Assembly: GCA_964413165.1 (NCBI GenBank)
Contig: CAYPSF010000001.1
Coordinates: 1,238-65,237, forward strand
DNA length: 64,000 bases
From: an uncultured Bifidobacteriaceae bacterium
Lineage (GTDB): Bacteria > Verrucomicrobiota > Verrucomicrobiia > Limisphaerales > UBA11358
Reading direction: 5' to 3'
Below are positions 1 through 21,066 of the stretch, one piece after another. The translations under genes and the position numbers were made by a program. The first letter of the stretch is position 1, and every line of letters begins with the position of its first letter. The notes under the pieces are model-generated. The model ran no database searches. It worked only from the letters and a program-made list of their open reading frames with translations, and was not told where the DNA came from.

Positions 1-228
1 GAGCAAGGATATCAGCATGTAGGCCGGTTTGATCCCGAAGGCCACCAGGACCACCAGCCATTGCTCGAACCGGCTCGTGTCGCGAAATGCGGCGGCCGGT
101 GCATTGTGCAATGCTGCCCACGCATCCACATGACCGAGCAGGAGCCAGTACAGCAGCAACGGCAGCAGCCCGGCCACGAGCACGCCGCCGCCGAACCACA
201 CCAGTGGTTTTTGCCGGTCCGTTTTCAT
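1..228 (-). CDS. Membrane protein, N-terminal part only (gene runs off the left edge)
   Basis: Absent from the ORF track because it is truncated. A reverse-strand ATG at ~226-228 overlaps the stop of the upstream radical SAM gene. It reads MKTDRQKPLVWFGGGVLVAGLLPLLLYWLLLG..., is hydrophobic and stays open to position 1. Confidence 0.4.
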   Translation of the reverse strand, partial: MKTDRQKPLVWFGGGVLVAGLLPLLLYWLLLGHVDAWAALHNAPAAAFRDTSRFEQWLVVLVAFGIKPAYMLISLL

Positions 229-1610
229 GATGAATTTCGTTTGAGGCAGTTGTGAACGCAGACGGGGATCAGCCGGCCGTCGAGCTGAGGATAAACCTGG
301 CAGCACTTCCGGGCCCGCGACAGGTCGAAAGTCTCCGGGTCCATGAACTGGTGGATGAAAATGGACTTCACCGACCGTTCGGCAACGGTCAAAGCCTGAC
401 GGGGCGAGTAGCCGCCGCCGGCCGTTGCGGAAGCCAGCAGCCGTCGAATGGCCCCGAGGGTTTTCTGAGAGTCGGGCGACAAGGCCGCCGGGCCGGACCA
501 AAGTTCATACACGGCCTCCGTGACGGCATTGAAACTTTCCGCGTCCGTGCCGAAAATGGCGCGGTTCTGAATCAGGTCCAGGTATCGCTCTGCGTTGACC
601 ATCTGCTTGATGGACACATGCCGCTGGTCTGCCACCTTCAAATAGAAGGCGAGTGAGAAACAAGCCGGATGGCTGCAAGGCAACGGGGAAAAATCATCGA
701 CAGAAACCGCGCCCGATCCGGCGCCGTTCAACGCTGCGATCACATCGGGAATGGTCACCGCTCCGGCGGGCCGCTGCTGCCTGGCGGCGCTGCCCGCATA
801 AGCCGCGGGTTGGAACATCACGCTCAGGATGTGGTCATGCCGAAACAACAGGTCGGCAATCTCCGCCAACTGGTGGTCATTGACTCCGCTGGCCACGGTG
901 GCGGTCAGCGACATGGATGAATCCAGTTCGCCGCACAAATCAATGAGCCGGCGTTTCTCCTCAAGCAACGGCCGGCCGCGCAGGGTCTGGTAGATGTCAT
1001 CGCTCAAGCCGTCAATTTGCAGCGACACAATCACGCGGCGTTGTGCCAAAAACTCCAGCAGTTCCCGGTTTCGCGCCAGGACCGAACCATTGGTGGAAAC
1101 GCTGACGCGCAGAATTTCCTTCCGCGAAACGCATTCCTCTACGATTTCCAGGAAATGAGGATTCAGCGTCGGTTCGCCCCCGGAAAGATTGAGCACGTCA
1201 ATCTGTCCTTCGGACTGGATGAGTCCATCCAGCACCCGTGCGACCTCCGCGCGGGTCCAGTGGTGGCGGCCGGGATTGGTGACCAGGCAGATGGGACAGT
1301 CCCAGTTGCAATGGTCGGTGATCTCGAGAATCGGCAGACAGACATGTTGTTCATGCTGCGGGCAGATGCCGCAGGAATCCGGACAGCCCGCCGCCTTCGT
1401 TGCGAATGCCAGCGGCATGGACGCCTGGCGGTGGAAATGTCCCAGCTTTAAATACGATTCGGCGTCGCCATGAATCCGCGCCTTTTGCCGGCCGTGCTCG
1501 GGGCATTCCTTTTGCATCCAGACACTGCCATTCTCCACGAAAATCTGCGCCGGAACCAGCCGTCGGCAGATCCGGCAAGTCGATTGAGTCGTGGTCAGGT
1601 ACTCATTCAT
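225..1610 (-). CDS. Radical SAM enzyme with N-terminal zinc-ribbon (COG1964/MJ0619/Tes-like architecture), paralog 1
   Basis: 461 aa. Motifs: C12xxC15...C36PEH39G ribbon, GCPDSCGICPQHEQHVC cysteine cluster, CNWDCPIC (CX3CX2C radical SAM motif), GGEPT SAM-binding motif, and C-terminal Cys motifs CSHPAC and KCC...IPVCVHN. Confidence 0.85.
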   Translation of the reverse strand: MNEYLTTTQSTCRICRRLVPAQIFVENGSVWMQKECPEHGRQKARIHGDAESYLKLGHFHRQASMPLAFATKAAGCPDSCGICPQHEQHVCLPILEITDHCNWDCPICLVTNPGRHHWTRAEVARVLDGLIQSEGQIDVLNLSGGEPTLNPHFLEIVEECVSRKEILRVSVSTNGSVLARNRELLEFLAQRRVIVSLQIDGLSDDIYQTLRGRPLLEEKRRLIDLCGELDSSMSLTATVASGVNDHQLAEIADLLFRHDHILSVMFQPAAYAGSAARQQRPAGAVTIPDVIAALNGAGSGAVSVDDFSPLPCSHPACFSLAFYLKVADQRHVSIKQMVNAERYLDLIQNRAIFGTDAESFNAVTEAVYELWSGPAALSPDSQKTLGAIRRLLASATAGGGYSPRQALTVAERSVKSIFIHQFMDPETFDLSRARKCCQVYPQLDGRLIPVCVHNCLKRNSS

Positions 1611-2193
1611 GAGATTTCATTTCCGGAGTGGCGGAGTTTCTCAGGGGTACAATCCGCGCCGGGTTGCCGATGGCGGCCTTGCCGGCCGGAACGTCACGTC
1701 CGGCCACCGCCCCGGCCACCACCACCGCCCCTTCGCCAATTTCCACGCCATGGCCGATGATGGCAAAACCACCGACGATGACGCCCTTGCGAAGGCGGAC
1801 CCGCCCGGCTTCAAAATGGTCGCGGTCAAATGCGTGGAGAAAAATCCTGACACCCACGCCCAGCATCACTTCGTCCTCAAGGGTCAATAGTTCCGGGAAG
1901 CTTGGGTCGATCCACACGTCGGTGGAAATAAAGACATCGCGGCCCACCTGCGCGCCTGACCAACGCAGCATGGCAATCTTGAGCGTGTTGAACGGGAGCT
2001 TCAGCGCGGTCAGCAGCAGGGTTGATTTAAAATAGAACCATAAGGTCGCCGGCCAGGCCTGGTCGCACGGACAGAAGCCCGTTGGCTGTGAAGGGTGACA
2101 GGTCGGCCAGGAGAAGAGGCGTTCCGTCGTCTGACTGGCAAGGAACTCCCGGAATTTTTCCTGTCCGGCAGACAGTGATGAGGGAGTTTTCAT
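1603..2193 (-). CDS. Left-handed beta-helix (hexapeptide-repeat) acyl/acetyltransferase
   Basis: 196 aa. The C-terminal half has hexapeptide-like periodicity (GVGVRIF...GVIVGGFAIIGHGVEIGEGAVVVAGAVAGRDVPAGKAAIGNPARIV). There is an 8-bp overlap with the downstream radical SAM gene. Confidence 0.75.
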   Translation of the reverse strand: MKTPSSLSAGQEKFREFLASQTTERLFSWPTCHPSQPTGFCPCDQAWPATLWFYFKSTLLLTALKLPFNTLKIAMLRWSGAQVGRDVFISTDVWIDPSFPELLTLEDEVMLGVGVRIFLHAFDRDHFEAGRVRLRKGVIVGGFAIIGHGVEIGEGAVVVAGAVAGRDVPAGKAAIGNPARIVPLRNSATPEMKSHE

Positions 2194-2216
2194 GCGTCAA
2201 CTCTCAAGCGCTGATG

Positions 2217-2332
2217 CCCCAGCACCAAAAAAACTCCAAACCCCAAACCCCAGGAACGCATTCGGGGTTCGTCGCCATTTCGAATTTGGCGCTTGGTGCT
2301 TATTTGGAGTTTGGTCATTGGGTTTTGGGGTT
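2217..2332. repeat. Intergenic imperfect hairpin element built of 7-bp-periodic units (CCAAACC type)
   Basis: Left arm ...caccaaaaaaactccaaaccccaaaccccagg. Right arm gcttggtgcttatttggagtttggtcattgggttttggggtt. The arms are mutually complementary (caccaa/ttggtg, actccaaa/tttggagt, ccaaaccccaaaccc/gggttttgggg). It fills the gap between two operon genes. Confidence 0.7.
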
Positions 2333-2336
2333 ATAT

Positions 2337-3746
2337 TCAAACGCACCAGAAGCGCGGGTCTTTTTGCCGGTAAAAAAGGTTGTACGCGCAGGCCGGAATC
2401 AGGCGGCCTTCCGGATCCGGCACCTGGTCCGGGCAGGCCACCAGCCGCGCCAGATCGAGCGTGTCCTCGTCCATGTGCGAATGGATGTAAACCGCCAGGA
2501 GTGATTCTTCGGCGACCGCCTGTCGTGCCGCCCGGGTCAGTGCCTGCCCCTGGGGATACATCCGTTCCACCAATCCGCGGATGGCCGGCAGGAGTTTTGA
2601 ATCATCGCCGGCTGCCCACAGCCGGTCGATGGCCGCCCGGAAAACTTCCTGGCTGTCATCCTCCGGTTGCAGGAGATAACCCTGTCCCAGCATCTGCCGC
2701 AGTTCCGCCACGGTGAGAAAATCCGTCAGAGACCGGTACGCACCGTTGTCCTTGAGATAATACGCGACGCTGTAACAGAGCGGATGCGCCCCGGCATGCG
2801 GGAAAAAGTGGGCCGCACCCATGGCGCCCCCGGTGGCGGATTCGATCGCCTTCACCGCGCCGTCCAGCGGCATGGTTTCCCGCGGCCGGAAATTTTTCCC
2901 ACCCTGGCCGGTAAAGGTCATCGTCTGAATGGTCACACTGCGCACCACCGGGTGGGCCCGGGCCAGTTCAATGACCCGTCCGATCTCGTCTTCGTTAACT
3001 CCCCGAATCATCACGTTGAGCAAAGTCGTGCCGATGCCGAAGCGTTGCAGGTTTTCCAGCGCCCGGTGTTTCAGACCCACCACATCCTTGCCGTAAATTT
3101 TCAATGCCCGGTCGGCCTGAAACGTGTCGAAGGAAAGAATCACATAAACCCCGAGGTCGGCCAGCGCCCGGCACAAATCTTCGTTGGTCGCCAGTCGCAG
3201 GCCGTTGGAGTTCATGGTCACGCGCCCGATTTCCGGCCGGCGGCATTCCCGCAACAGCTCCACGATCTGCGGATGCATGGTCGGCTCCCCGCCCGTGATG
3301 TTCATCAGGTCAAACGGACCGGCGCGGGCGATGAGTTTGTCGAGCAACGATCGCAGTTCCTCGCGCGTCATGAAATATTTCCGGTCCGGCCGGTTGTAAG
3401 TGAAGCAAATCGGACAATCCAGGTTGCACGCGTTGGTCACCGAAAACACCGGCAGATGGCAGGCATTGGCGTGGAAGCTGCAGGGACCGCAATCGTGCGG
3501 ACAACCCCGATGAACTTCGCCTCCCGGCAGCCGGGCCGGTTTGCAACGCACCGTCGTGGCCACGCGGTCCAGGTACCATTCCACCCCGTCGGCAATCCGC
3601 ACCCGGCTTGTCCCGCATTTCGGGCACAGCCGTTCCTGATAAACCGCGCCACCTTTCTCCAGAATCCGCGCGGGAAGCAGGGCGCGACATTCCCGGCACA
3701 TGCCGCGCACGGTTCCCAGGTAAGTGTAGGATCGGGAAGGCCTCAT
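2337..3746 (-). CDS. Radical SAM enzyme with N-terminal zinc-ribbon (COG1964/MJ0619/Tes-like architecture), paralog 2
   Basis: 469 aa. Motifs: C17xxC20...C41xxC44 ribbon, GCPHDCGPCSFHANAC cluster, CNLDCPIC radical SAM motif, GGEPT, and C-terminal ACPDQ...IPACAYN. It is colinear with the 225..1610 product. Confidence 0.85.
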   Translation of the reverse strand: MRPSRSYTYLGTVRGMCRECRALLPARILEKGGAVYQERLCPKCGTSRVRIADGVEWYLDRVATTVRCKPARLPGGEVHRGCPHDCGPCSFHANACHLPVFSVTNACNLDCPICFTYNRPDRKYFMTREELRSLLDKLIARAGPFDLMNITGGEPTMHPQIVELLRECRRPEIGRVTMNSNGLRLATNEDLCRALADLGVYVILSFDTFQADRALKIYGKDVVGLKHRALENLQRFGIGTTLLNVMIRGVNEDEIGRVIELARAHPVVRSVTIQTMTFTGQGGKNFRPRETMPLDGAVKAIESATGGAMGAAHFFPHAGAHPLCYSVAYYLKDNGAYRSLTDFLTVAELRQMLGQGYLLQPEDDSQEVFRAAIDRLWAAGDDSKLLPAIRGLVERMYPQGQALTRAARQAVAEESLLAVYIHSHMDEDTLDLARLVACPDQVPDPEGRLIPACAYNLFYRQKDPRFWCV

Positions 3747-9303: not shown

Positions 9304-9759
9304 TCATCCCGCGCTCATCCAGATCTTCTTCAACTGCCGCCGCTTTTCATCCAGCAGCGGATCGTCCACATATTTGAAGGCAAACACCATCTCCGTCGAA
9401 GTCACAACCGTTTTTCCGCGGAACGCGGTGGCTTTGACTTTGCCGCCGGCCTCGTTTACCGATTTCACTTCCGTCCGGTAAATCAACGTGTCGCCCGGTT
9501 TAACCAGGGTCCGGAACTTGGTGCGTTCGAGGACAGTCAGGACCGCCTTGGCGTTTTTGGCATAGTGTTGGTGAAGGCTTTCTTCCAGGAGCAATCCGGA
9601 AAGCTGGGCCATTCCTTCCAGGATCAACACGCCCGGCATGACCGGCCGGCGCGGGAAATGGTCGTCAAAAAAGTCCTCGCTTAAGGCGATGTTTTTCAGG
9701 CCTTCCGCCGCGACGCCCGCTTCCCAGCGGGTGATTTTATCCAGCAAAAAGAAGCGCAT
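9304..9759 (-). CDS. FabZ-like 3-hydroxyacyl-ACP dehydratase
   Basis: HFPRRPVMPGVLILEGMAQLSG is the FabZ signature. I chose the start at MRFFLLDKI, which parallels the MKFRLVDKI start of the other dehydratase. The ORF track extends to 9921 but would then overlap the divergent comM start. Confidence 0.75.
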   Translation of the reverse strand: MRFFLLDKITRWEAGVAAEGLKNIALSEDFFDDHFPRRPVMPGVLILEGMAQLSGLLLEESLHQHYAKNAKAVLTVLERTKFRTLVKPGDTLIYRTEVKSVNEAGGKVKATAFRGKTVVTSTEMVFAFKYVDDPLLDEKRRQLKKIWMSAG

Positions 9760-9883
9760 GGCTTGGGCGCCGATGGTGAAGGGAATCCATTGGCCTGGCC
9801 AGCCTATTTCCCAGCCCCGGCCAACTGGTTCGGTTCCGAAGAACCGGATTGCATTGGGGACCGTGGTCGGATAAGTAACATTC

Positions 9884-11410
9884 ATGTTAGCGAGGGTTTG
9901 TTCCGCGGCGCTTAATGGCATCGAAGCCTATCCCGTCGAGGTCGAAGTCAATGCCGGCTGGGGCGACACCCTCGTCGTGATTGTCGGCCTGCCGGATGCC
10001 GCGGTGAAGGAATCGCGCGACCGGGTCTCCACCGCGCTCACCAACTCCGGGTTCAAGTTTCCGATGGGGCGCACCACCATCAACCTGGCGCCCGCCGACG
10101 TGAAAAAAGAGGGGCCGAGCTTTGACCTGCCCATCGCGCTCGGCATGCTGGCCGCCAACGAACAAATCGAGACCGACCAGCTCGACAATTTCATCATCGT
10201 GGGCGAACTCGCGTTGACCGGGGCGGTGCGTCCGTGCAAAGGCGTTCTGCCCGTCGCCCTCCGCGCCCGCGCCGACGGTTTGACCGGCGTGCTGGTCCCG
10301 GCGGAAAATGCCCCCGAAGCCGCTGTCGTCGAAGGGTTGCAAGTCATTCCCGTCCGGAATCTACGCGAGGCGGCCCAGTTCCTGGAGGGGGAAATCAAAA
10401 TCACGCCGGCAAAAGTGGACACCGCCCGGATTTTCGACCAGCCGCAGGACGACGACCTGGATTTTGCCGAGGTCAAAGGGCAGGAAAATGTGAAACGCGC
10501 CCTGGAAATCGCCGCCGCCGGCGGGCACAACGCACTGCTCATCGGGCCGCCGGGCACCGGCAAATCCATGCTCGCCAAACGGCTGCCGACCATTCTCCCG
10601 CCGCTCACGTTGGACGAGGCGCTGGAGACCACGAAGATCCACAGCATTGTCGGGTTGCTGGCTTCGGGCCAGGCGCTGGTGACTCGCCGGCCGTTTCGCA
10701 CGCCGCATCACACGGCCAGCGATGCCGGCCTGCTCGGCGGCAATGTCAATCCCACGCCCGGCGAAATCTCGCTCGCGCACAACGGCGTTTTGTTCCTGGA
10801 CGAACTGCCGGAATTCAAGCGCAGTGTGCTGGAGACCATGCGCCAGCCGCTTGAGGACGGGCGCGTCACCATCTCACGGGCGGCGGGCACCATGACCTTT
10901 CCGTCGCAATTCATGCTGGTGGCGGCGATGAACCCGACCCCGGACGGTAAGATGCCGCATGAATCGAGAAGTTCCCCGCGGGAAATCCAGAATTACCTGG
11001 GCCGGATTTCCGGGCCGTTGCTCGACCGGGTGGATTTGCACGTGGAAGTACCGCCGGTGAAGTTCCGGGAAATCGCCGGCGATCGCACCGGCGAAACCTC
11101 GGCACAAATCCGCGATCGCGTCGTGGCCGCGCGCCGCCGCCAACATGACCGGTTTAAATCCAAACCGAAGATCACCTGCAATGCCCGGATGGGCACGCGC
11201 GAATTGAAACAATTTTGCGAGCTGGACGAGGCGACGAAGGAACTGCTGCAAAATGCGATGGCCGATCTGAATTTGAGCGCCCGGGCCTACGACCGGATTT
11301 TGAAGGTGGCCCGGACGATTGCCGACCTGGCCGGGGCGGAAAAGATTCAGAGCGACCACATTTCCGAGGCCATCCAATACCGTTCGCTGGACCGCCAGTT
11401 GTGGGCGTGA
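9884..11410 (+). CDS. comM: ComM/YifB Mg-chelatase-like AAA+ ATPase
   Basis: 508 aa. [22 protein letters not shown] is the N-terminal Lon-like domain. Also present: GPPGTGKS Walker [11 protein letters not shown] Walker B, and a typical C-terminal ...[15 protein letters not shown]. Confidence 0.9.
11345..11410 (+). repeat. Direct repeat copy 1 (last 22 codons of comM)
   Basis: attcagagcgaccacatttccgaggccatccaataccgttcgctggaccgccagttgtgggcgtga. It matches 18529..18594 at 64 of 66 positions. Confidence 0.9.
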
Positions 11411-14709: not shown

Positions 14710-14810
14710 AACCTTATGGCAGGAAACGCAAAAAAACGGTCTGACCTTTCATTAAAATGGATTTTTTTGAAAGATTTCCGCCAGCAGCGGCGTTATCCTG
14801 TTTGTCGTCC

Positions 14811-15449
14811 ATGAACCGCCTGGAAACAGACCGACCGGAACGGGATTCCGTTGCCACCCGCGCCAGCCTGCTGGGTCGCATTCGCAATTGGGAGGATGCG
14901 GCCAGCTGGGAGGATTTTACCGAAACCTACTGGCGGTTGATTTACAGCGTCGCCCGCCGGTCAGGCTTGGCGGATGCCGAGGCGCGGGACGTGGTGCAGG
15001 AGACGCTTTTGGGGGTGGCAAAGAAAATCCACGAATTTGAATCCGACCCCCAACGAGGATCCTTCCGGGGCTGGTTGCTGAACCTGACCCGCTGGCGCAT
15101 CGCTGACCACTTCCGCAAGCATCCACCCGACCCGCAGGTTCCGCGGGCCGAATCAGGGTCGGACGATCGCACGGCCACAATCGACCGGGTGCCGGATTCA
15201 AACGAGATCGACGTGTGGTGGGAATTGGAATGGAAGAAGAACCTTCTTGAAACGGCGGTGACCCGCCTGAGCCGTCGGGTCAATCCGAAGCATGCCCAGA
15301 TTTACGATCTGTACGCGGTGCGCGACTGGCCGGCGGCCAAGGTTGCCCGCGAATTGGGGGTGAACGTGATCCAGGTTTACCTGGTCAACCACCGGCTGAC
15401 GCGTCTGCTCCAGGCAGAAGTTGCGTACCTGCGAAAGAAGCTGGAATAA
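14811..15449 (+). CDS. ECF-type RNA polymerase sigma-70 factor (kinase-associated type)
   Basis: Region 2 reads WEDFTETYWRLIYSVARRSGLADAEARDVVQETLLGVAKK. Region 4 HTH reads WPAAKVARELGVNVIQVYLVNHRLTRLL. The ORF-track start at 14757 is possible; I preferred the internal MNRLETD start. Confidence 0.85.
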   Translation: MNRLETDRPERDSVATRASLLGRIRNWEDAASWEDFTETYWRLIYSVARRSGLADAEARDVVQETLLGVAKKIHEFESDPQRGSFRGWLLNLTRWRIADHFRKHPPDPQVPRAESGSDDRTATIDRVPDSNEIDVWWELEWKKNLLETAVTRLSRRVNPKHAQIYDLYAVRDWPAAKVARELGVNVIQVYLVNHRLTRLLQAEVAYLRKKLE

Positions 15450-15535
15450 ACCGGCCTTCACCCCGAAAGCTGCGCCGGGCCGGCCAGTTTCATCTTTTCT
15501 TTTGAAGCGTATTCGGGAACATCGTCCGCGAGGTT

Positions 15536-18520
15536 ATGCGGTCTGACCCCCTCAGCATCCCGGATTTCGATCTGGTCCGGCCCGTCGGGCGCGGCAGTTA
15601 TGGCGAGGTGTGGCTGGCGCGCAGTGTGACCGGGATTCATCGGGCCATCAAGGTGGTGTATCGGGATCGTTTCGAAGAGGCCCGTCCGTTTGAACGGGAA
15701 TTTGCCGGCATCAAACGCTTTGAGCCGATTTCACGTTCCCAGGAAAACCTGGTGGACATCCTCCACGTGGGGCGCAAGGACGAGGGGGGCTGTTTTTATT
15801 ATGTGATGGAACTGGCCGACCCGGCGAGTGGCGATCCGGCGCCGGTATCGGAGGCCAGCAGTTCCGCGTGGGAACAGGACTACCGGCCCAGGACCTTGCG
15901 CGAAGCGCTCGCTACCCGGAAGCGGCTGCCCATCGAGGAGTGTCTGGCCATCGCCATCGGATTGGCCCGGGCGGTGAAACATCTGCACGAGCACGGCTTG
16001 ATTCATCGCGACATCAAGCCGTCCAATGTCATTTTCGTGAACGGAACCCCGAAGCTGGCGGACATCGGCCTGGTTTCCGCGGTGGAAGAATCCCGCTCGT
16101 TCGTCGGCACGGAAGGATTTGTTCCGCCGGAAGGGCCGGGAACACCGGCGGCGGACCTGTTCAGCCTGGGAAAGGTGCTGTACGAGATGAGCACCGGCCG
16201 GGACCGGCTCGAATTTCCTAAACTGCCGGAAGACCTTGAGCTCATTCCCAAACGTGAAGCCCTGCTGGAGTTCAACGAGGTGGTCCTGAAGGCGTGTCAT
16301 TCGCAGGTGAAGGAACGTTACCCATCCGCCAGTGACCTGCTCGACGATCTGTTATTGCTGCAGGCGGGACGTTCGGTGAAACGGCTTCGGCTGGCGGAGC
16401 GGCGCCTGGCTCGGCTGATCCCTTTGGTCCTGACGTTCGTGGGCTTGGGCCTGGCGGTTCTGGTCGTCCAACACCTGCGCACCCGCGCAGCCCAGGAACT
16501 GGCGCGAGTGGAAACCCGCTATCGCCACGAGGCGGAAACCCAGGAACTGGCCACGAGGCAATTGCTCTATGCGGCGGACATGAATCTGGCGCACCAGGCC
16601 TATGCCGCCGGCGACCTGGGCCGCACCAAAAGCTTGTTGACCGGCTGCATGCCCAAATCCGGCGCTCCCGATTTCCGCGGCTTCGAGTGGCGTTATTATT
16701 GGGGGCTTTGCCGGGGAGACCAGGACTACGCTTTTCCTGTCCAGTCCAACGCCATCGCCGAACTCGCCTTCTCCCCCGACGGTCGCCGGCTGGCATCGGC
16801 CGGCTACGACCACCGGGTCCAAGTGTGGGATTTTAACGGCCGTCAACTGATGAAAACTTACGCGGCCTCCGGAGGGGTCGAGGATGTTGGATTCTCTCCT
16901 GATGGGCGGAAGATTATGATGTCCGACACTGCGGGCTGCGTCGAAGTCAAGGAGGTTGAGAGCGGTCGGGTCCTCTTTCACCTGCAAGGCCGTTTCCGCC
17001 GCGCGACGATTTCACCCGGCGGAACGCTGCTGGCTCTGGGTGGCGGCGGCAAGCAGGCCTCGATGTTTCAGGGACCGGTTGAGGTCTGGGATTATCAGGG
17101 GCAGCAACGGCTTTTTTCCTTCACCAACGCCGGCACGTACGTCGCCTTTTCGCCCGATGGCAGGCGGCTGGCAGCCGGCAGCGACAACCATGAACTGAAA
17201 ATTTGGGATCTGGCGGACGCCACCTTGTTGCGGCGGATCCAGCCCGTGGAAGACAACTTTGGCATGAGCTTTTCGCCGGATGGCCGGAAATTGTTGTTGG
17301 GTGATGAGCTGGGGTTTCTGCATCTCTGGGATCTGGACTCCGGACGGCACCTGGCAGGTGTCCAGGCCCACAAAGGAAATATTTTCAAGACGGCGATTTC
17401 ACCGGACGGCAAGATCATTGCCAGCGTCGGTGCCGATCAGACGGTCCGGCTTTGGAATGCCGAATCGCTTTCGGAATTGCGAATTTTACGCGGGCACGCC
17501 AGCGAAGTGTGGGCGGTGGCCTTCTCACCCGATGGCAAAGCGCTGGTCACCGGCGGCAAAGACGGAAGGGTTCTGTCGTGGAGCGTGGCGGGCCCAATGA
17601 CGAAAGAGGTCCTGACCCAGGATGTAAATTTCTGGGACTGGCCGGTGTTTTCCGACGATGGAAGCCTGATCGCGGTGGGTGAGAAAAGGGCAGGTGTGAC
17701 CGTCTGGCGCGCGGCCGACGGGATGCGGCTGGATACGCTGGGCGACGCGGAAACGCCGCTGGCGTTCGACACCCATGCCGCATCGTTGCTGGCCCTCGGA
17801 CGAACCGGTGAACTGCAACAGTGGGCTCTGTCGTCGACCAATCATCAGCTCCTCAAACGCGTCCACCTGCCAGACATGGAAATTCGCGCCCACGCCTACC
17901 TCCCGGAACGCAACCTCCTGATCACCGGCGATAGCCAGGGGCTCATCCGGATTTGGGATGTGAATTCCGGTGCTGAATTGGCGCATTGGCAGGCGCATCC
18001 GGACCGCATCACCGGCATCGCTCTCTCGCCCAACCACACTCTGCTGGCCACCGTCGCTGAATCAGACGATGACGCGAAAGTCTGGGATCTGGGCCGGCAC
18101 GAATTGGTCCAAACCTTGCGCGGCCACAAAATGGCGGTGTTTGGTGTCGCTTTCTCACCGGATGGGCGAACCGTCGCCACCGCCAGCGTGGATGACACCT
18201 GCCGCCTCTGGGATGTCCGAACCGGACAATGCCTCGCCGAGTTGGGTGGGCATCAGGGCGGTACTTACAGCGTGGCGTTTTCGCCGGACGGCAAAACTCT
18301 GGCGGTCGGTTGCAACGAGGGCGAATTGAAACTTTGGAACCTTGCCACCCGGCGCGACATGATGACCCTGATGGCCGAGCCGCATACAATATTTGTCACC
18401 AGCTTTTCTCCCGACGGGAGGACCCTGGCCACCGTCAGTTTCAACCATCACGACGAGAAGTGTTCGCTCAAACTTTGGCGCGCGCCGGATGTGCCGGGAG
18501 CCGGCCCAGGGTCGCCGTAG
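15536..18520 (+). CDS. Ser/Thr protein kinase with transmembrane segment and C-terminal WD40 repeats
   Basis: 994 aa. Motifs: GRGSYGEVW glycine loop, AIKVV, HRDIKPSNV catalytic loop, DIGL. TM segment LIPLVLTFVGLGLAVLVV. More than 10 WD40-like units (FSPDG..LA.....V.LWD). Confidence 0.9.
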   Translation: MRSDPLSIPDFDLVRPVGRGSYGEVWLARSVTGIHRAIKVVYRDRFEEARPFEREFAGIKRFEPISRSQENLVDILHVGRKDEGGCFYYVMELADPASGDPAPVSEASSSAWEQDYRPRTLREALATRKRLPIEECLAIAIGLARAVKHLHEHGLIHRDIKPSNVIFVNGTPKLADIGLVSAVEESRSFVGTEGFVPPEGPGTPAADLFSLGKVLYEMSTGRDRLEFPKLPEDLELIPKREALLEFNEVVLKACHSQVKERYPSASDLLDDLLLLQAGRSVKRLRLAERRLARLIPLVLTFVGLGLAVLVVQHLRTRAAQELARVETRYRHEAETQELATRQLLYAADMNLAHQAYAAGDLGRTKSLLTGCMPKSGAPDFRGFEWRYYWGLCRGDQDYAFPVQSNAIAELAFSPDGRRLASAGYDHRVQVWDFNGRQLMKTYAASGGVEDVGFSPDGRKIMMSDTAGCVEVKEVESGRVLFHLQGRFRRATISPGGTLLALGGGGKQASMFQGPVEVWDYQGQQRLFSFTNAGTYVAFSPDGRRLAAGSDNHELKIWDLADATLLRRIQPVEDNFGMSFSPDGRKLLLGDELGFLHLWDLDSGRHLAGVQAHKGNIFKTAISPDGKIIASVGADQTVRLWNAESLSELRILRGHASEVWAVAFSPDGKALVTGGKDGRVLSWSVAGPMTKEVLTQDVNFWDWPVFSDDGSLIAVGEKRAGVTVWRAADGMRLDTLGDAETPLAFDTHAASLLALGRTGELQQWALSSTNHQLLKRVHLPDMEIRAHAYLPERNLLITGDSQGLIRIWDVNSGAELAHWQAHPDRITGIALSPNHTLLATVAESDDDAKVWDLGRHELVQTLRGHKMAVFGVAFSPDGRTVATASVDDTCRLWDVRTGQCLAELGGHQGGTYSVAFSPDGKTLAVGCNEGELKLWNLATRRDMMTLMAEPHTIFVTSFSPDGRTLATVSFNHHDEKCSLKLWRAPDVPGAGPGSP

Positions 18521-18528
18521 ACCCACAA

Positions 18529-18594
18529 ATTCAAAGCGACCACATTTCCGAGGCCATCCAATACCGTTCGCTGGACCGCCAGTTGTGGACGTGA
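18529..18594 (+). repeat. Direct repeat copy 2 (orphan comM 3' fragment)
   Basis: Encodes [21 protein letters not shown] with no upstream comM body. It starts 8 bp after the kinase stop. Confidence 0.9.
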
Positions 18595-18657
18595 GATCCC
18601 CGGGCAATCGCCTTGCCCGCGGATGGAAACCCGCCATACTGGCGCGGAACCGCTCTT

Positions 18658-21066
18658 ATGAACTATCGCGTGCGCCGTCGGGGGGACGATTTAGGAGTCT
18701 TTTCACTGGACGAATTGCGGCAACAACGCGAGTCCGGGGGGTTGACCGGCGATGAATATGTTCAAGGGGAAGGGATGTCCGACTGGCAGCCGCTGGAGCT
18801 GGTGTTGCAGCAGGGGTATCGCGTCGTGCCGCCGCCCCTGCCGTCGTCCGTCTCCAAAGGCGGCTTGAGCCAGGGCGTCATCTGGCTGATGATCGGCGGC
18901 GGAATATTTTTTTTTATCATTTTCGTCTCGGCCTTCACGTATTCGATACTCGGCTTTCAACGCGGTTTTCAGGGTGCCATCAACTCCTCCCGGGCGCGAT
19001 CGGGTGCCGCCGAGCCGAGCCTGGACGGGGTGTCCGCGGCCAGCAAGCCGGTGGTCTGGACAACCAACACGTTAACCGCCGCCGACGTTCAAAAGCAGGG
19101 ACGCGAATTCGGAACCCGCCAATGGCTGGATGGCTATGAAAAGCGCGGCCGCCGCAATCCGTCCTGCGACAGCAAAGTGGACCAGCTTCTTCGCGCCTGG
19201 ATTGCCCACGAGTCCGGCAGCCGGGTGGAAACGAATGCCCTTCCCGTGGCACAGCTGGGCGACCAACTGGCGGCGGATGCCAATTGCACCGACCCGTTGG
19301 TGTTGACTGTGGCCGCCGAAAGCAGCATCGAGATCTTCGAGTCCACCCATCGTTTTGAACGTGCCCTGGCCGGATTTCCCGAATCGAATCACAAGGCCTA
19401 TCCCCGCCTGTGCGCGTCCGTCGGAATAACCCGTTATCTGAGCGACCACCCGGAACGAATTGCCACCCTGGACGCGTCGTCGCTGAAATTGCTGGGAAAC
19501 TGTTTTGCCGATGGCAGTTTTCTGCCCGGCGACCAGCAAACGATCGGAGAAATTCTGGTCCACGATTGGGGAAATGCTTTCTTTGAAAGAAACGAGGCCG
19601 CCATTTGCCGGATCGTGCACCAGGCCGGGCCGGCCTATCAATGGCTGGCGCTGACGCTCGACGGTGAGCGCGAGATCAATGAAGCATGGAAGGTCCGCGG
19701 CGGCGGCTACTCCGGCACCGTAACCTCGGCCGGCTGGCAGGGTTTCAGCGATCACCTGGCCAAGGCCCGGAAAGTCCTCGCGCAAGCCTGGCATTTGCAG
19801 CCCGGGTTCCCCCTGGCGCCGTGCCGGATGATGACGGTGGCGTTGGGCGATTCCGATGCGGACGAAATGCGCATCTGGTTTGACCGGACACTGACAGCGC
19901 AATTGGACTATCCCCAGGCCTGGTCCGGAATGCGCTGGGGCCTGCGCTCGCGCTGGCACGGCAGCGAAGCCGCTTTGCTGGCGCTGGGCCGGACCGCAAT
20001 CCATACGGGACGTTTTGACACCGAAGTTCCCCGGAAGTTCCTTGATTGTGTTTCGGACGTGGAATCGGAAGAGGAGCTGGCGTCTAGCCGGCACATCTAT
20101 GGGCGCCCGGACATCTGGCCGGAACTGCAGACGATGTATGAGGGTTATCTCGCCGACCGCACGCAAGCATCGGGCCGCCGCGAATGGCTCGGCAACTATG
20201 CGATCGCCGCTTATTTTGCGGGAAAATATGACGTGGCGGCCGAACAGTTGAAAGCCTTGGATGGGAAACTGCCATCGCAGAGCCTGACCGGCTGGGGCGC
20301 GGATGTTTCGTTGATGCCCCTGGAAGCGGTCGCCCGCACGGGGCCGCTCAAAAAGGACGTTACCGAGGCTGAATCACACTATCAGAGCGGCGACCTGGCC
20401 ACGGCCCTGTACCAGTTTGGGGCGCTGCAGGCTGCGACCAATGCGGATGACGGAACCCGCAAATTTATTCAAACCCGGCTGGCGGCGATCTCCCTGGAAC
20501 AGCGGTTCCAGAAAAGAGAGTGGGTGGATTTCCTGCCGTCGGACAATGCCGATCCGGGTTGGGCCTGCCTGCGGGGTAAAATGCAGCGACTCCCGGACGG
20601 CGCGTTGGAAGTCCAATCCGGGCCGGAAGGGCATTTTATTTTCTCCCGCGCCCGCGTGGGTTCCAATTTTGAAATCCGCGGTGAATTCGAGGTGGTTCGC
20701 TCCTCAACGAAATATTTCCAGGCCGGACTGGTCATGGGCACGCCCGACGTGGACGCCTATTCCTTCCAGGCGTTTCGCATTCAACGGCACGAACAGGAAG
20801 GCGACATTGCGTGTTTCGCCGAAGGCTGGGGGCTGCGGCAACTCACGCAACAGGCAAAAGTGAACGCGGTCCGCAATACCTTCAATTTCCGCCTGGAAAA
20901 GGGCCGGATCACCGCGTCGGTCAATGGCGCCGAGGTTTTTGCCAGCGCGACGCCGAAAGACGAATTCAGCGGGCCGGACGAAGACATCCGCGCGGGGCTG
21001 GGTGCCTACAACGACACCAACGAAACCGTCATCCGCTACCGCAACGTTCGAATCCGGAAACTGTAA
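18658..21066 (+). CDS. GYF_2 (DUF4339)-domain membrane protein with C-terminal DUF1080/LamG-like domain
   Basis: Starts MNYRVRRRGDDLGVFSLDELRQ...GMSDWQPLELVL (GYF-like). TM segment VIWLMIGGGIFFFIIFVSAFTY. C-terminus ...WVDFLP...GALEVQSGPEGHFIFS...IRYRNVRIRKL (DUF1080-like). The ORF-track start at 18613 lies inside the comM repeat, so I preferred the internal start. Confidence 0.7.
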   Translation: MNYRVRRRGDDLGVFSLDELRQQRESGGLTGDEYVQGEGMSDWQPLELVLQQGYRVVPPPLPSSVSKGGLSQGVIWLMIGGGIFFFIIFVSAFTYSILGFQRGFQGAINSSRARSGAAEPSLDGVSAASKPVVWTTNTLTAADVQKQGREFGTRQWLDGYEKRGRRNPSCDSKVDQLLRAWIAHESGSRVETNALPVAQLGDQLAADANCTDPLVLTVAAESSIEIFESTHRFERALAGFPESNHKAYPRLCASVGITRYLSDHPERIATLDASSLKLLGNCFADGSFLPGDQQTIGEILVHDWGNAFFERNEAAICRIVHQAGPAYQWLALTLDGEREINEAWKVRGGGYSGTVTSAGWQGFSDHLAKARKVLAQAWHLQPGFPLAPCRMMTVALGDSDADEMRIWFDRTLTAQLDYPQAWSGMRWGLRSRWHGSEAALLALGRTAIHTGRFDTEVPRKFLDCVSDVESEEELASSRHIYGRPDIWPELQTMYEGYLADRTQASGRREWLGNYAIAAYFAGKYDVAAEQLKALDGKLPSQSLTGWGADVSLMPLEAVARTGPLKKDVTEAESHYQSGDLATALYQFGALQAATNADDGTRKFIQTRLAAISLEQRFQKREWVDFLPSDNADPGWACLRGKMQRLPDGALEVQSGPEGHFIFSRARVGSNFEIRGEFEVVRSSTKYFQAGLVMGTPDVDAYSFQAFRIQRHEQEGDIACFAEGWGLRQLTQQAKVNAVRNTFNFRLEKGRITASVNGAEVFASATPKDEFSGPDEDIRAGLGAYNDTNETVIRYRNVRIRKL

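Follow-up and report, generated by a model that had tools for sequence, protein, structure and literature searches.

To our knowledge, no enzyme family other than tetraether synthase (Tes, also named GDGT-MAS) has a structurally characterised mechanism by which two unactivated sp3 carbons of lipid tails are joined. Bacterial homologues of Tes now serve as genomic markers for the producers of brGDGTs (branched glycerol dialkyl glycerol tetraethers), which are used as palaeoclimate biomarkers. Here, we analyse two Tes-like radical S-adenosylmethionine (SAM) proteins, rSAM-A (461 aa) and rSAM-B (469 aa), hereafter A and B, which are both encoded on the minus strand of a 64,000-nt stretch of contig CAYPSF010000001.1 (positions 1,238 to 65,237; GenBank assembly GCA_964413165.1), referred to as the window. 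They are best seen as a pair of ancient and specialised Tes-like enzymes of a widespread and uncharacterised lipid or polyketide pathway that depends on an acyl carrier protein (ACP).

Tes holds a rubredoxin-like iron bound by C9, C12, C33 and H36 (C-X2-C-X20-C-X2-H), an N-terminal [4Fe-4S] cluster bound by C73, C77, C80 and a conserved histidine, the CX3CX2C radical SAM cluster, and a C-terminal [4Fe-4S] cluster held by three cysteines and the labile Met439; Met439 and Tyr459 show no variation across 1000 archaeal Tes homologues (PMC9433317). In the mechanism summarised in PMC13459092, the C-terminal cluster holds the first radical and the C–C bond is then formed. Bacterial Tes homologues have been widely reported and are hypothesised to make brGDGTs (PMC8941075), and those of Planctomycetota have been counted as potential brGDGT producers in metagenome surveys (PMC11868695). 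Acidobacterial Tes is linked to iso-diabolic tetraesters in work cited by a 2026 paper (PMC13023045).

Besides Tes, clusters resembling fatty-acid synthase (FAS) genes and including radical SAM genes have been described in anammox bacteria and in some deltaproteobacteria, where their function is unknown (PMC2649909, PMC4790861), and genome mining has pointed to clusters of the antiSMASH 'ladderane' type in Verrucomicrobia (PMC8692599). In the open-access literature searched, we found no description of two Tes-like subfamilies within an operon combining a ketosynthase (KS), a chain-length factor (CLF) and an ACP, which is not proof that such a system is unpublished.

Results

Homology, fold and metal ligands

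A and B align over their full length with 146 of 461 residues identical (32%; BLASTP E 2e-77), a match far beyond chance that bears out the first-pass annotation, which had described them from the sequence as a radical SAM pair with colinear cysteine motifs. All the listed motifs follow in the same order: a CxxC...CPxH/CG site (C12, C15, C36 and H39 in A; C17, C20, C41 and C44 in B), a GCPxxCGxCxxH motif (C76, C80, C83 and H86; C82, C86, C89 and H92), the radical SAM CxxxCxxC motif (C101, C105 and C108 within CNWDCPIC; C107, C111 and C114 within CNLDCPIC), a GGEPT motif in each protein, and three C-terminal cysteines (C317, C436 and C451; C324, C438 and C453) with an invariant histidine near the C-terminal cluster (H420; H422). 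Both proteins belong to the radical SAM superfamily by their CX3CX2C and GGE motifs and by their scores against Radical_SAM PF04055 (78.9 bits for A and 92.9 for B versus a gathering threshold of 29.5).

The sole full-length relative of known structure for either protein is the GDGT-MAS/Tes of Methanocaldococcus jannaschii (7TOL/7TOM; E-values of the PDB search in Table 1). Single-chain AlphaFold2 models were confident (pLDDT 84 and pTM 0.87 for A; pLDDT 91.7 and pTM 0.92 for B) and superposed on 7TOL/7TOM with Foldseek TM-scores of 0.83 (A) and 0.82 (B) over ∼490 columns spanning all four domains, while the remaining PDB structures matched the radical SAM core alone (TM ≤ 0.40). The FMD and IPxC motifs of Tes are retained as well, although A and B are only ∼25% identical to Tes.

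Every Cys/His ligand position of Tes (ligand set from PMC9433317) is filled in both proteins and kept in 108 A and 110 B close orthologues from metagenomes. Since the Tes ligands map onto A and B, the GCPxxCGxCxxH motif corresponds to the N-terminal auxiliary cluster. Similarly, the homology to Tes equates the site that had been called a ribbon with the rubredoxin-like iron site, so that the metal is not necessarily zinc. Each protein is thus predicted to hold four metal sites: a rubredoxin-like iron, an N-terminal [4Fe-4S] cluster, the radical SAM [4Fe-4S] cluster and a C-terminal [4Fe-4S] cluster.

The rubredoxin-like site of A has the same spacing and composition as that of Tes (three cysteines and a histidine), whereas B has an all-Cys variant in place of the histidine that Tes uses as fourth ligand. 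This difference between His39 and Cys44, already singled out in the first-pass annotation, is real and has no exception among close orthologues, where all 108 of A have His and all 110 of B have Cys. The cysteine is not universal once the wider B clade is considered: about nine species-level loci have a histidine and two a glycine, and other B-clade members in the tree show His, Thr, Ala or Gly. Cysteine at this position is a derived state within part of the B clade.

The best NCBIfam match of both proteins is the radical SAM (seleno)protein TrsS (NF045646), yet this identity was rejected, as the scores of 265.8 (A) and 228.5 bits (B) stay well under the cut-off of 490 and neither open reading frame (ORF) needs in-frame TGA readthrough; in the literature searched, TrsS was met only as a name in a list.

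Age of the duplication and selection on both copies

An exhaustive homologue search of 1.84 billion representative proteins returned 368 clusters at E ≤ 1e-30. Neighbour-joining trees were built on corrected p-distances between full-length representatives, without bootstraps, and clade membership at the margins is therefore approximate; examples are L063, L071, L072 and L078, in which a B-clade gene adjoins an 'other' Tes-like gene. In these trees, A and B form separate deep clades and the archaeal, Met-containing Tes group forms a third one. The corrected distance between A and B (1.52) equals that between A and Tes (1.52), and on this measure the A/B duplication is as deep as the split from archaeal Tes, which makes the two genes ancient paralogues and not recent duplicates.

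Both genes are under purifying selection, with dN/dS values of 0.08–0.13 against close relatives, similar to those of the adjoining KS, ketoreductase (KR) and dehydratase (DH) genes. Among the alignment columns, 58 are at least 97% conserved and identical in the A and B clades, while 31 are at least 97% conserved inside each clade yet different between them. Such clade-specific columns flank the radical SAM cluster (L109/F115 and V110/T116, A/B) and the cysteines of the C-terminal cluster (A316/L323 and F318/Y325). The pattern of these 31 columns points to functional divergence, with neither copy decaying.

Co-occurrence and synteny across phyla

In a scan of one genome per GTDB species, at least 579 species had a gene for a relative of A, and the top 80 loci were retrieved. 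Their record titles assign them to Verrucomicrobiota, Planctomycetota, Riflebacteria, Myxococcota, 'Deltaproteobacteria', Elusimicrobiota, Leptospiraceae, Acidobacteriota, Burkholderiales, Victivallales, Firmicutes and others. Close relatives were found in peat, lake and soil metagenomes.

A B-clade gene lies within 10 kb of the A-clade gene in 54 of 62 A-clade loci. The other eight comprise six loci cut by a contig end, one with a split B (L069) and one without B (L026, Riflebacteria). In 55 of the 56 informative species-level loci, A- and B-clade genes occur side by side. B is upstream of A on the same strand in 51 loci and arranged otherwise in three. Within these 51, the two genes are directly adjacent in 21, separated by 0.15–1 kb holding the acyltransferase in 17, by 1–2 kb in two, and by ∼2.5 kb in 11, where the acyltransferase is accompanied by two small SPASM/twitch-type radical SAM genes. 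Besides, the identities of the A and B orthologues to the window proteins are strongly correlated (r = 0.96; 67 loci).

The shared gene order is DH1, CLF, KS, KR1, nitroreductase, ACP, KR2, DH2, B, acyltransferase (with or without the small radical SAM genes), A and membrane protein, and it recurs in loci from more than 10 phyla. The two closest relatives (L005 and L006; 91–92% identity) have a third Tes-like gene after that of the membrane protein (L005:11363-12784 and L006:12374-13789). Its product of 471 aa is 31% identical to A, has a methionine at the column of the labile Met and carries the signature CCCH...IM.CS.HC. The genome from which the window derives probably holds this third gene just beyond the left window edge.

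Further radical SAM genes are associated with the cluster in other loci. The small SPASM/twitch-type genes (∼341 and ∼344 aa; L003:12723-16101) recur in or near it in many phyla, and loci that carry them between B and A include L034, L036, L037 and L045. A B12-binding radical SAM gene is found in or near the cluster in a few loci. Neither type lies in the stretch of the operon that the window covers.

A type-II FAS/PKS-like operon

The genes of the conserved block (Table 1) form a compact, mostly overlapping series on the minus strand between positions 1 and 9921 of the window. Start and stop codons overlap by 4–8 nt between DH2 and B (ATGA), between the acyltransferase and A (8 nt), and between A and the membrane protein (ATGA). 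Overlaps of this size are typical for co-translated operon genes. From its arrangement, the series is predicted to be a translationally coupled 12-gene operon resembling type-II FAS and polyketide synthase (PKS) systems.

Table 1. Position and basis of assignment of the features of the conserved block in the window
Feature	Position	Strand	Basis
DH1, FabA/FabZ (ApeI-like) dehydratase, 205 aa, first gene of the conserved block	9304..9921	-	Pfam FabA 3.3e-24
CLF, KS-like protein without Cys-His-His triad (chain-length-factor-like), 377 aa	8155..9288	-	N-terminal KS domain alone detected
KS, FabF-type ketosynthase, intact Cys-His-His, 420 aa	6896..8158	-	Pfam ketoacyl-synt N + C; PDB FabF E 1e-95
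KR1, FabG-type ketoreductase, 245 aa	5984..6721	-	Pfam/NCBIfam
Nitroreductase-family flavoenzyme, 213 aa	5346..5987	-	Pfam Nitroreductase 1.5e-34; syntenic across phyla
Dedicated ACP, 137 aa	4931..5344	-	Pfam PP-binding; 137-aa gene call on identical contig L001
KR2, FabG-type ketoreductase, 244 aa	4204..4938	-	Pfam adh_short_C2; NCBIfam FabG subfamily 235.7 bits > 222 cut-off
DH2, FabZ/FabA-like dehydratase, 153 aa	3743..4204	-	Pfam FabA 1.1e-10; NCBIfam FabZ below cut-off; syntenic in most loci
rSAM-B, 469 aa, Tes/GDGT-MAS-like 'B' subfamily	2337..3746	-	Pfam Zn_ribbon_HMPTM + Radical_SAM; PDB 7TOL E 1.1e-44; AF2 (AlphaFold2)
Intergenic spacer, 143 nt, imperfect long-range inverted repeat	2194..2336	-	Sequence, folding
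Hexapeptide-repeat (LbH) acyl/acetyltransferase, 196 aa, hydrophobic N-terminal segment	1603..2193	-	Pfam Hexapep
rSAM-A, 461 aa, Tes/GDGT-MAS-like 'A' subfamily	225..1610	-	Pfam Zn_ribbon_HMPTM + Radical_SAM; PDB 7TOL E 1.6e-53; AF2
Cys-rich multi-pass membrane protein, first 76 codons, runs off window edge	1..228	-	332 aa on L001

The KS has the motifs ACAAG, HGTGT and GHM. When the KS-like protein is aligned to it, the catalytic Cys, His and His are all substituted, and given this loss of the triad the two look like a KS/CLF heterodimer. The DH1 orthologue in L003 also matches the ApeI-like PF22818. The ACP extends ∼55 residues beyond its PP-binding domain at the C-terminus, and its length is kept in L001 and L003 (137–138 aa). 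Pfam and NCBIfam annotation shows neither a FabI-type enoyl reductase nor a thioesterase or a starter-activating enzyme in the operon.

The NCBIfam matches of the acyltransferase, to WcaF-type and heptaprenylglyceryl-phosphate O-acetyltransferases, are weak, and none of them reaches its cut-off. Of the 84 loci examined, ∼40 have a homologue with a score of at least 45 bits, mostly between B and A. Metagenomic contig L001 is 100% identical to the window and supplies the full membrane protein gene (L001:5226-6224). The membrane protein has no Pfam or NCBIfam match and is conserved downstream of A in many loci. It carries the Cys-rich motif CAALSLCRACIKYDADVPCG, and its counterpart in L003 (L003:11437-12726) has an N-terminal rhodanese domain, which hints at a sulfur or redox role.

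Further along the window (14757-21066) lie genes for an ECF-type (extracytoplasmic function) sigma factor, for a Ser/Thr kinase of 994 aa that has WD40 repeats, and for a protein with GYF_2 and 3-keto-disaccharide-hydrolase domains. They agree with the Verrucomicrobiota/Planctomycetota origin to which the names of the homologues point.

The spacer between B and the acyltransferase

The first-pass annotation had separated the two radical SAM genes by an acyltransferase and a hairpin repeat, and both are there, the inverted repeat being imperfect. In the spacer, a C/A-rich arm (CCCCAAA-type) faces a G/T-rich arm (GGGGTTT-type), which is followed by a T-run (U-run in the transcript). Its folding energy is marginally better than that of shuffled sequences (z = -2.06; 6 of 200 shuffles as good). 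The gap between B and the acyltransferase measures 0–20 nt in most relatives. A homologous spacer of 146 nt with both arms is found in L008 only, and L006 and L007 have the left arm alone. The consensus fold of the two complete sequences pairs both arms with the U-run after them, and two sequences offer almost no covariation for a test. The spacer had no Rfam match as a known RNA, had no second copy in the window as a repeated mobile element would, and was not called by a simple terminator scan. The hairpin is real but lineage-restricted, and it is not part of the conserved system; it may be a lineage-specific attenuator or terminator, or the remnant of an insertion.

In L003, a PIN-domain gene and small ORFs lie between B and A (L003:8522-9909), and three B orthologues (P0190, P0207 and P0225; 767–786 aa) were called as fusions to an IS200-type Y1 transposase domain (PF01797). 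These insertions in relatives indicate that the junction after B tolerates foreign sequence, and it seems to be an insertion hot spot.

Discussion

The present analysis leads us to propose, with a probability of roughly 0.55, that A and B are functionally distinct enzymes of the Tes superfamily, which make two different C–C bonds on an acyl or lipid chain built by the operon. The substrate, the coupling chemistry and the order of the steps are read here by analogy with Tes. The KS/CLF-ACP machinery would build a dedicated acyl chain, and A and B would be the late-acting enzymes. Each of them would use a 5'-deoxyadenosyl radical to abstract hydrogen from unactivated carbons of this chain, or of a recipient lipid, and the C-terminal cluster would park the first radical until the second is formed, resulting in a C–C bond as in Tes. 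The bonds made by A and B would differ, for instance a chain–chain coupling for one and a ring or second link for the other, and the end product would be a lipid that is cross-linked or cyclised. That the operon also encodes an acyltransferase and a membrane protein suggests that late steps take place at the membrane. Moreover, the retention of two or three diverged paralogues side by side argues for two or three different bonds. Finally, more distant members of the superfamily (P0322, P0368, P0369, P0372, P0364 and P0334) have their Tes-like domain fused to other enzymes, among which are prolipoprotein diacylglyceryl transferase (Lgt), an AMP-binding (acyl-AMP) ligase, a SAM methyltransferase and a MobA-like nucleotidyltransferase with an HD domain; the fusions to Lgt, the acyl-AMP ligase and the methyltransferase are consistent with lipids as substrates of the superfamily as a whole. 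The broader idea of a widespread new bacterial lipid pathway, in which two or three dedicated enzymes of the Tes type would cross-link or cyclise an ACP-built chain, possibly unsaturated since the operon has no FabI-type reductase, is more tentative, and we consider it possible rather than probable.

Several observations weigh against this proposal. The column of Met439 does not hold a methionine in either protein: HMMER pairwise alignment and MAFFT localpair both place a histidine there (H420 in A and H422 in B), and a second MAFFT run shifts by one residue, which puts Ile/Leu in the column with the histidine adjacent. A still has the tyrosine that corresponds to Tyr459 of Tes (Y440), while B has Val instead, and some of the residues that contact 5'-deoxyadenosine differ. 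Against the NCBIfam Tes equivalog NF045702, A scores 229.1 and B 208.9 bits; since both are far under the cut-off of 450, the two proteins are classified by sequence as members of the Tes superfamily and not as Tes equivalogs. In addition, Tes alone makes both C–C bonds of the tetraether, so that the need for two enzymes is not explained by the analogy. The same scaffold could also perform another chemistry, such as desaturation, methylation or C–S bond formation, and the substrate could be a bulk membrane lipid instead of the product of the operon.

The close coupling of the two genes might alternatively mean that A and B form an obligate heteromeric enzyme catalysing a single transformation, in the manner of KS and CLF. 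Their near-perfect co-occurrence and correlated divergence would be expected in that case, and their rubredoxin-like sites (three Cys and His in A, four Cys in most B) are possibly complementary. However, the radical SAM cluster and the C-terminal cluster are complete in both proteins and the GGEPT motif is kept, so that neither of them has the appearance of an inactive partner; their genes are often one to three genes apart; and no A–B fusion was found among the 10 long superfamily matches whose domains were checked. We therefore regard a heteromer as unlikely. Somewhat less likely still, in our opinion, is that A and B are true bacterial tetraether or tetraester synthases that couple the tails of ordinary phospholipids, the FAS-like genes only supplying a special fatty acid, with membrane-spanning lipids (for example iso-diabolic acid or brGDGT precursors) as products. 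The Tes fold and ligand set are present, bacterial Tes homologues have been proposed (PMC8941075) and, for Acidobacteria, reported (PMC13023045) to make membrane-spanning lipids, and the close relatives come from the peat, lake and soil metagenomes mentioned above. Against it stand the scores below the Tes equivalog cut-off, the position of A and B outside the Met-containing Tes clade together with the absence of a conserved Met439, and the retention of two or three paralogues here, where a single Tes is reported to be enough for archaea and for Acidobacteria. Known Tes loci are not tightly coupled to a dedicated ACP and KS/CLF either.

That one copy is simply redundant or a decaying duplicate is very improbable: nothing speaks for it beyond the paralogy itself, and it is contradicted by dN/dS values of ∼0.1 for both genes, metal ligands intact in more than 100 orthologues of each, their ancient divergence and their strict co-retention. 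The view of the first-pass annotation that the paralogues are non-redundant is thus well supported, with the 31 fixed differences and the 55 of 56 co-occurrences adding to this evidence. We give no more credence to a role as pterin methylases, a rejected annotation that owes its existence to the label '7,8-dihydro-6-hydroxymethylpterin dimethyltransferase' in the JGI names of many matches and to the name of Pfam PF23545. This label derives from MJ0619, whose earlier methanopterin assignment was not corroborated and which was shown to be a tetraether synthase (PMC9433317), and the conserved neighbourhood consists of fatty-acid and polyketide genes, with no pterin or methanopterin genes.

How does the locus compare with described systems? 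A and B share the four-domain architecture and fold of Tes, but they occur as an obligatory pair, or as a trio in the closest relatives, and sit in a bacterial ACP/KS/CLF operon, while Tes is found in an archaeal ether-lipid context. The acidobacterial Tes homologues of Ca. Koribacter and Ca. Solibacter belong to the same superfamily and are likewise bacterial, lipid-directed and oxygen-sensitive radical SAM enzymes. However, they are reported to be 40–42% identical to archaeal Tes (PMC8941075), whereas A and B fall in separate deep clades with a histidine signature.

The anammox 'ladderane' clusters of Kuenenia (kuste3603-3608 and kuste3335-3352) resemble the operon in their dedicated ACP, their FabF accompanied by a triad-less FabF, their FabZ-like dehydratase and their radical SAM genes. 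A triad-less partner has been described for the anammox FabF, with which it forms a KS/CLF-like heterodimer, as well as for polyene type-II systems. Cluster I (kuste3603-3608) differs by a B12-dependent radical SAM gene (TIGR04072) and a phytoene-desaturase-like gene next to amxACP, amxFabZ and the FabF pair; neither a B12-radical SAM nor a desaturase gene lies in the window's conserved block, and the B12-radical SAM gene near the L003 cluster reaches 70.9 bits against the TIGR04072 cut-off of 360. No named anammox genus was present among the A-clade relatives in a search seeded with the orthologue from a Brocadiia metagenome-assembled genome. Only one locus bears a Kuenenia title, L053 (Candidatus Kuenenia stuttgartiensis isolate FI88_62_9), and it has 62% G+C. 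The G+C content of Kuenenia is about 41%, and the label of L053 is therefore doubtful. A link to anammox kuste3342/3343 and to Desulfotalea DP1853/DP1855 was dropped as unproven, given the 62% G+C of L053 and the lack of named anammox genera in the search.

In the same vein, the type-II polyene synthases (aryl polyene, ishigamide and flexirubin) resemble the operon in pairing a KS with a CLF-like protein and in their FabG-type KR, their two FabZ/ApeI-like dehydratases and their stand-alone ACP; an obvious FabI-type enoyl reductase is absent from both. The operon departs from them in that annotation without family-specific models found neither an aryl-starter adenylating enzyme nor an LPLAT/exporter set or a thioesterase, and in its two to five radical SAM enzymes and nitroreductase, which are not a feature of polyene systems.

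To conclude, the A/B pair and its operon define a concrete and testable candidate pathway for an unknown lipid class. The signatures that set A and B apart from true Tes are the fourth rubredoxin ligand, a histidine where Tes has Met439, and CCxxY (A) or CP/GxxV (B). Low-stringency surveys of 'Tes homologues' may mis-assign brGDGT potential, especially in Planctomycetota and Verrucomicrobiota. If the broader idea of a new lipid pathway is true, new macrocyclic, ring-bearing or membrane-spanning lipids would be made by anaerobic members of the Planctomycetota-Verrucomicrobiota-Chlamydiota (PVC) superphylum and by other bacteria, and many of the planctomycetal and verrucomicrobial 'Tes homologues' that are now counted as brGDGT markers would belong to a different pathway.

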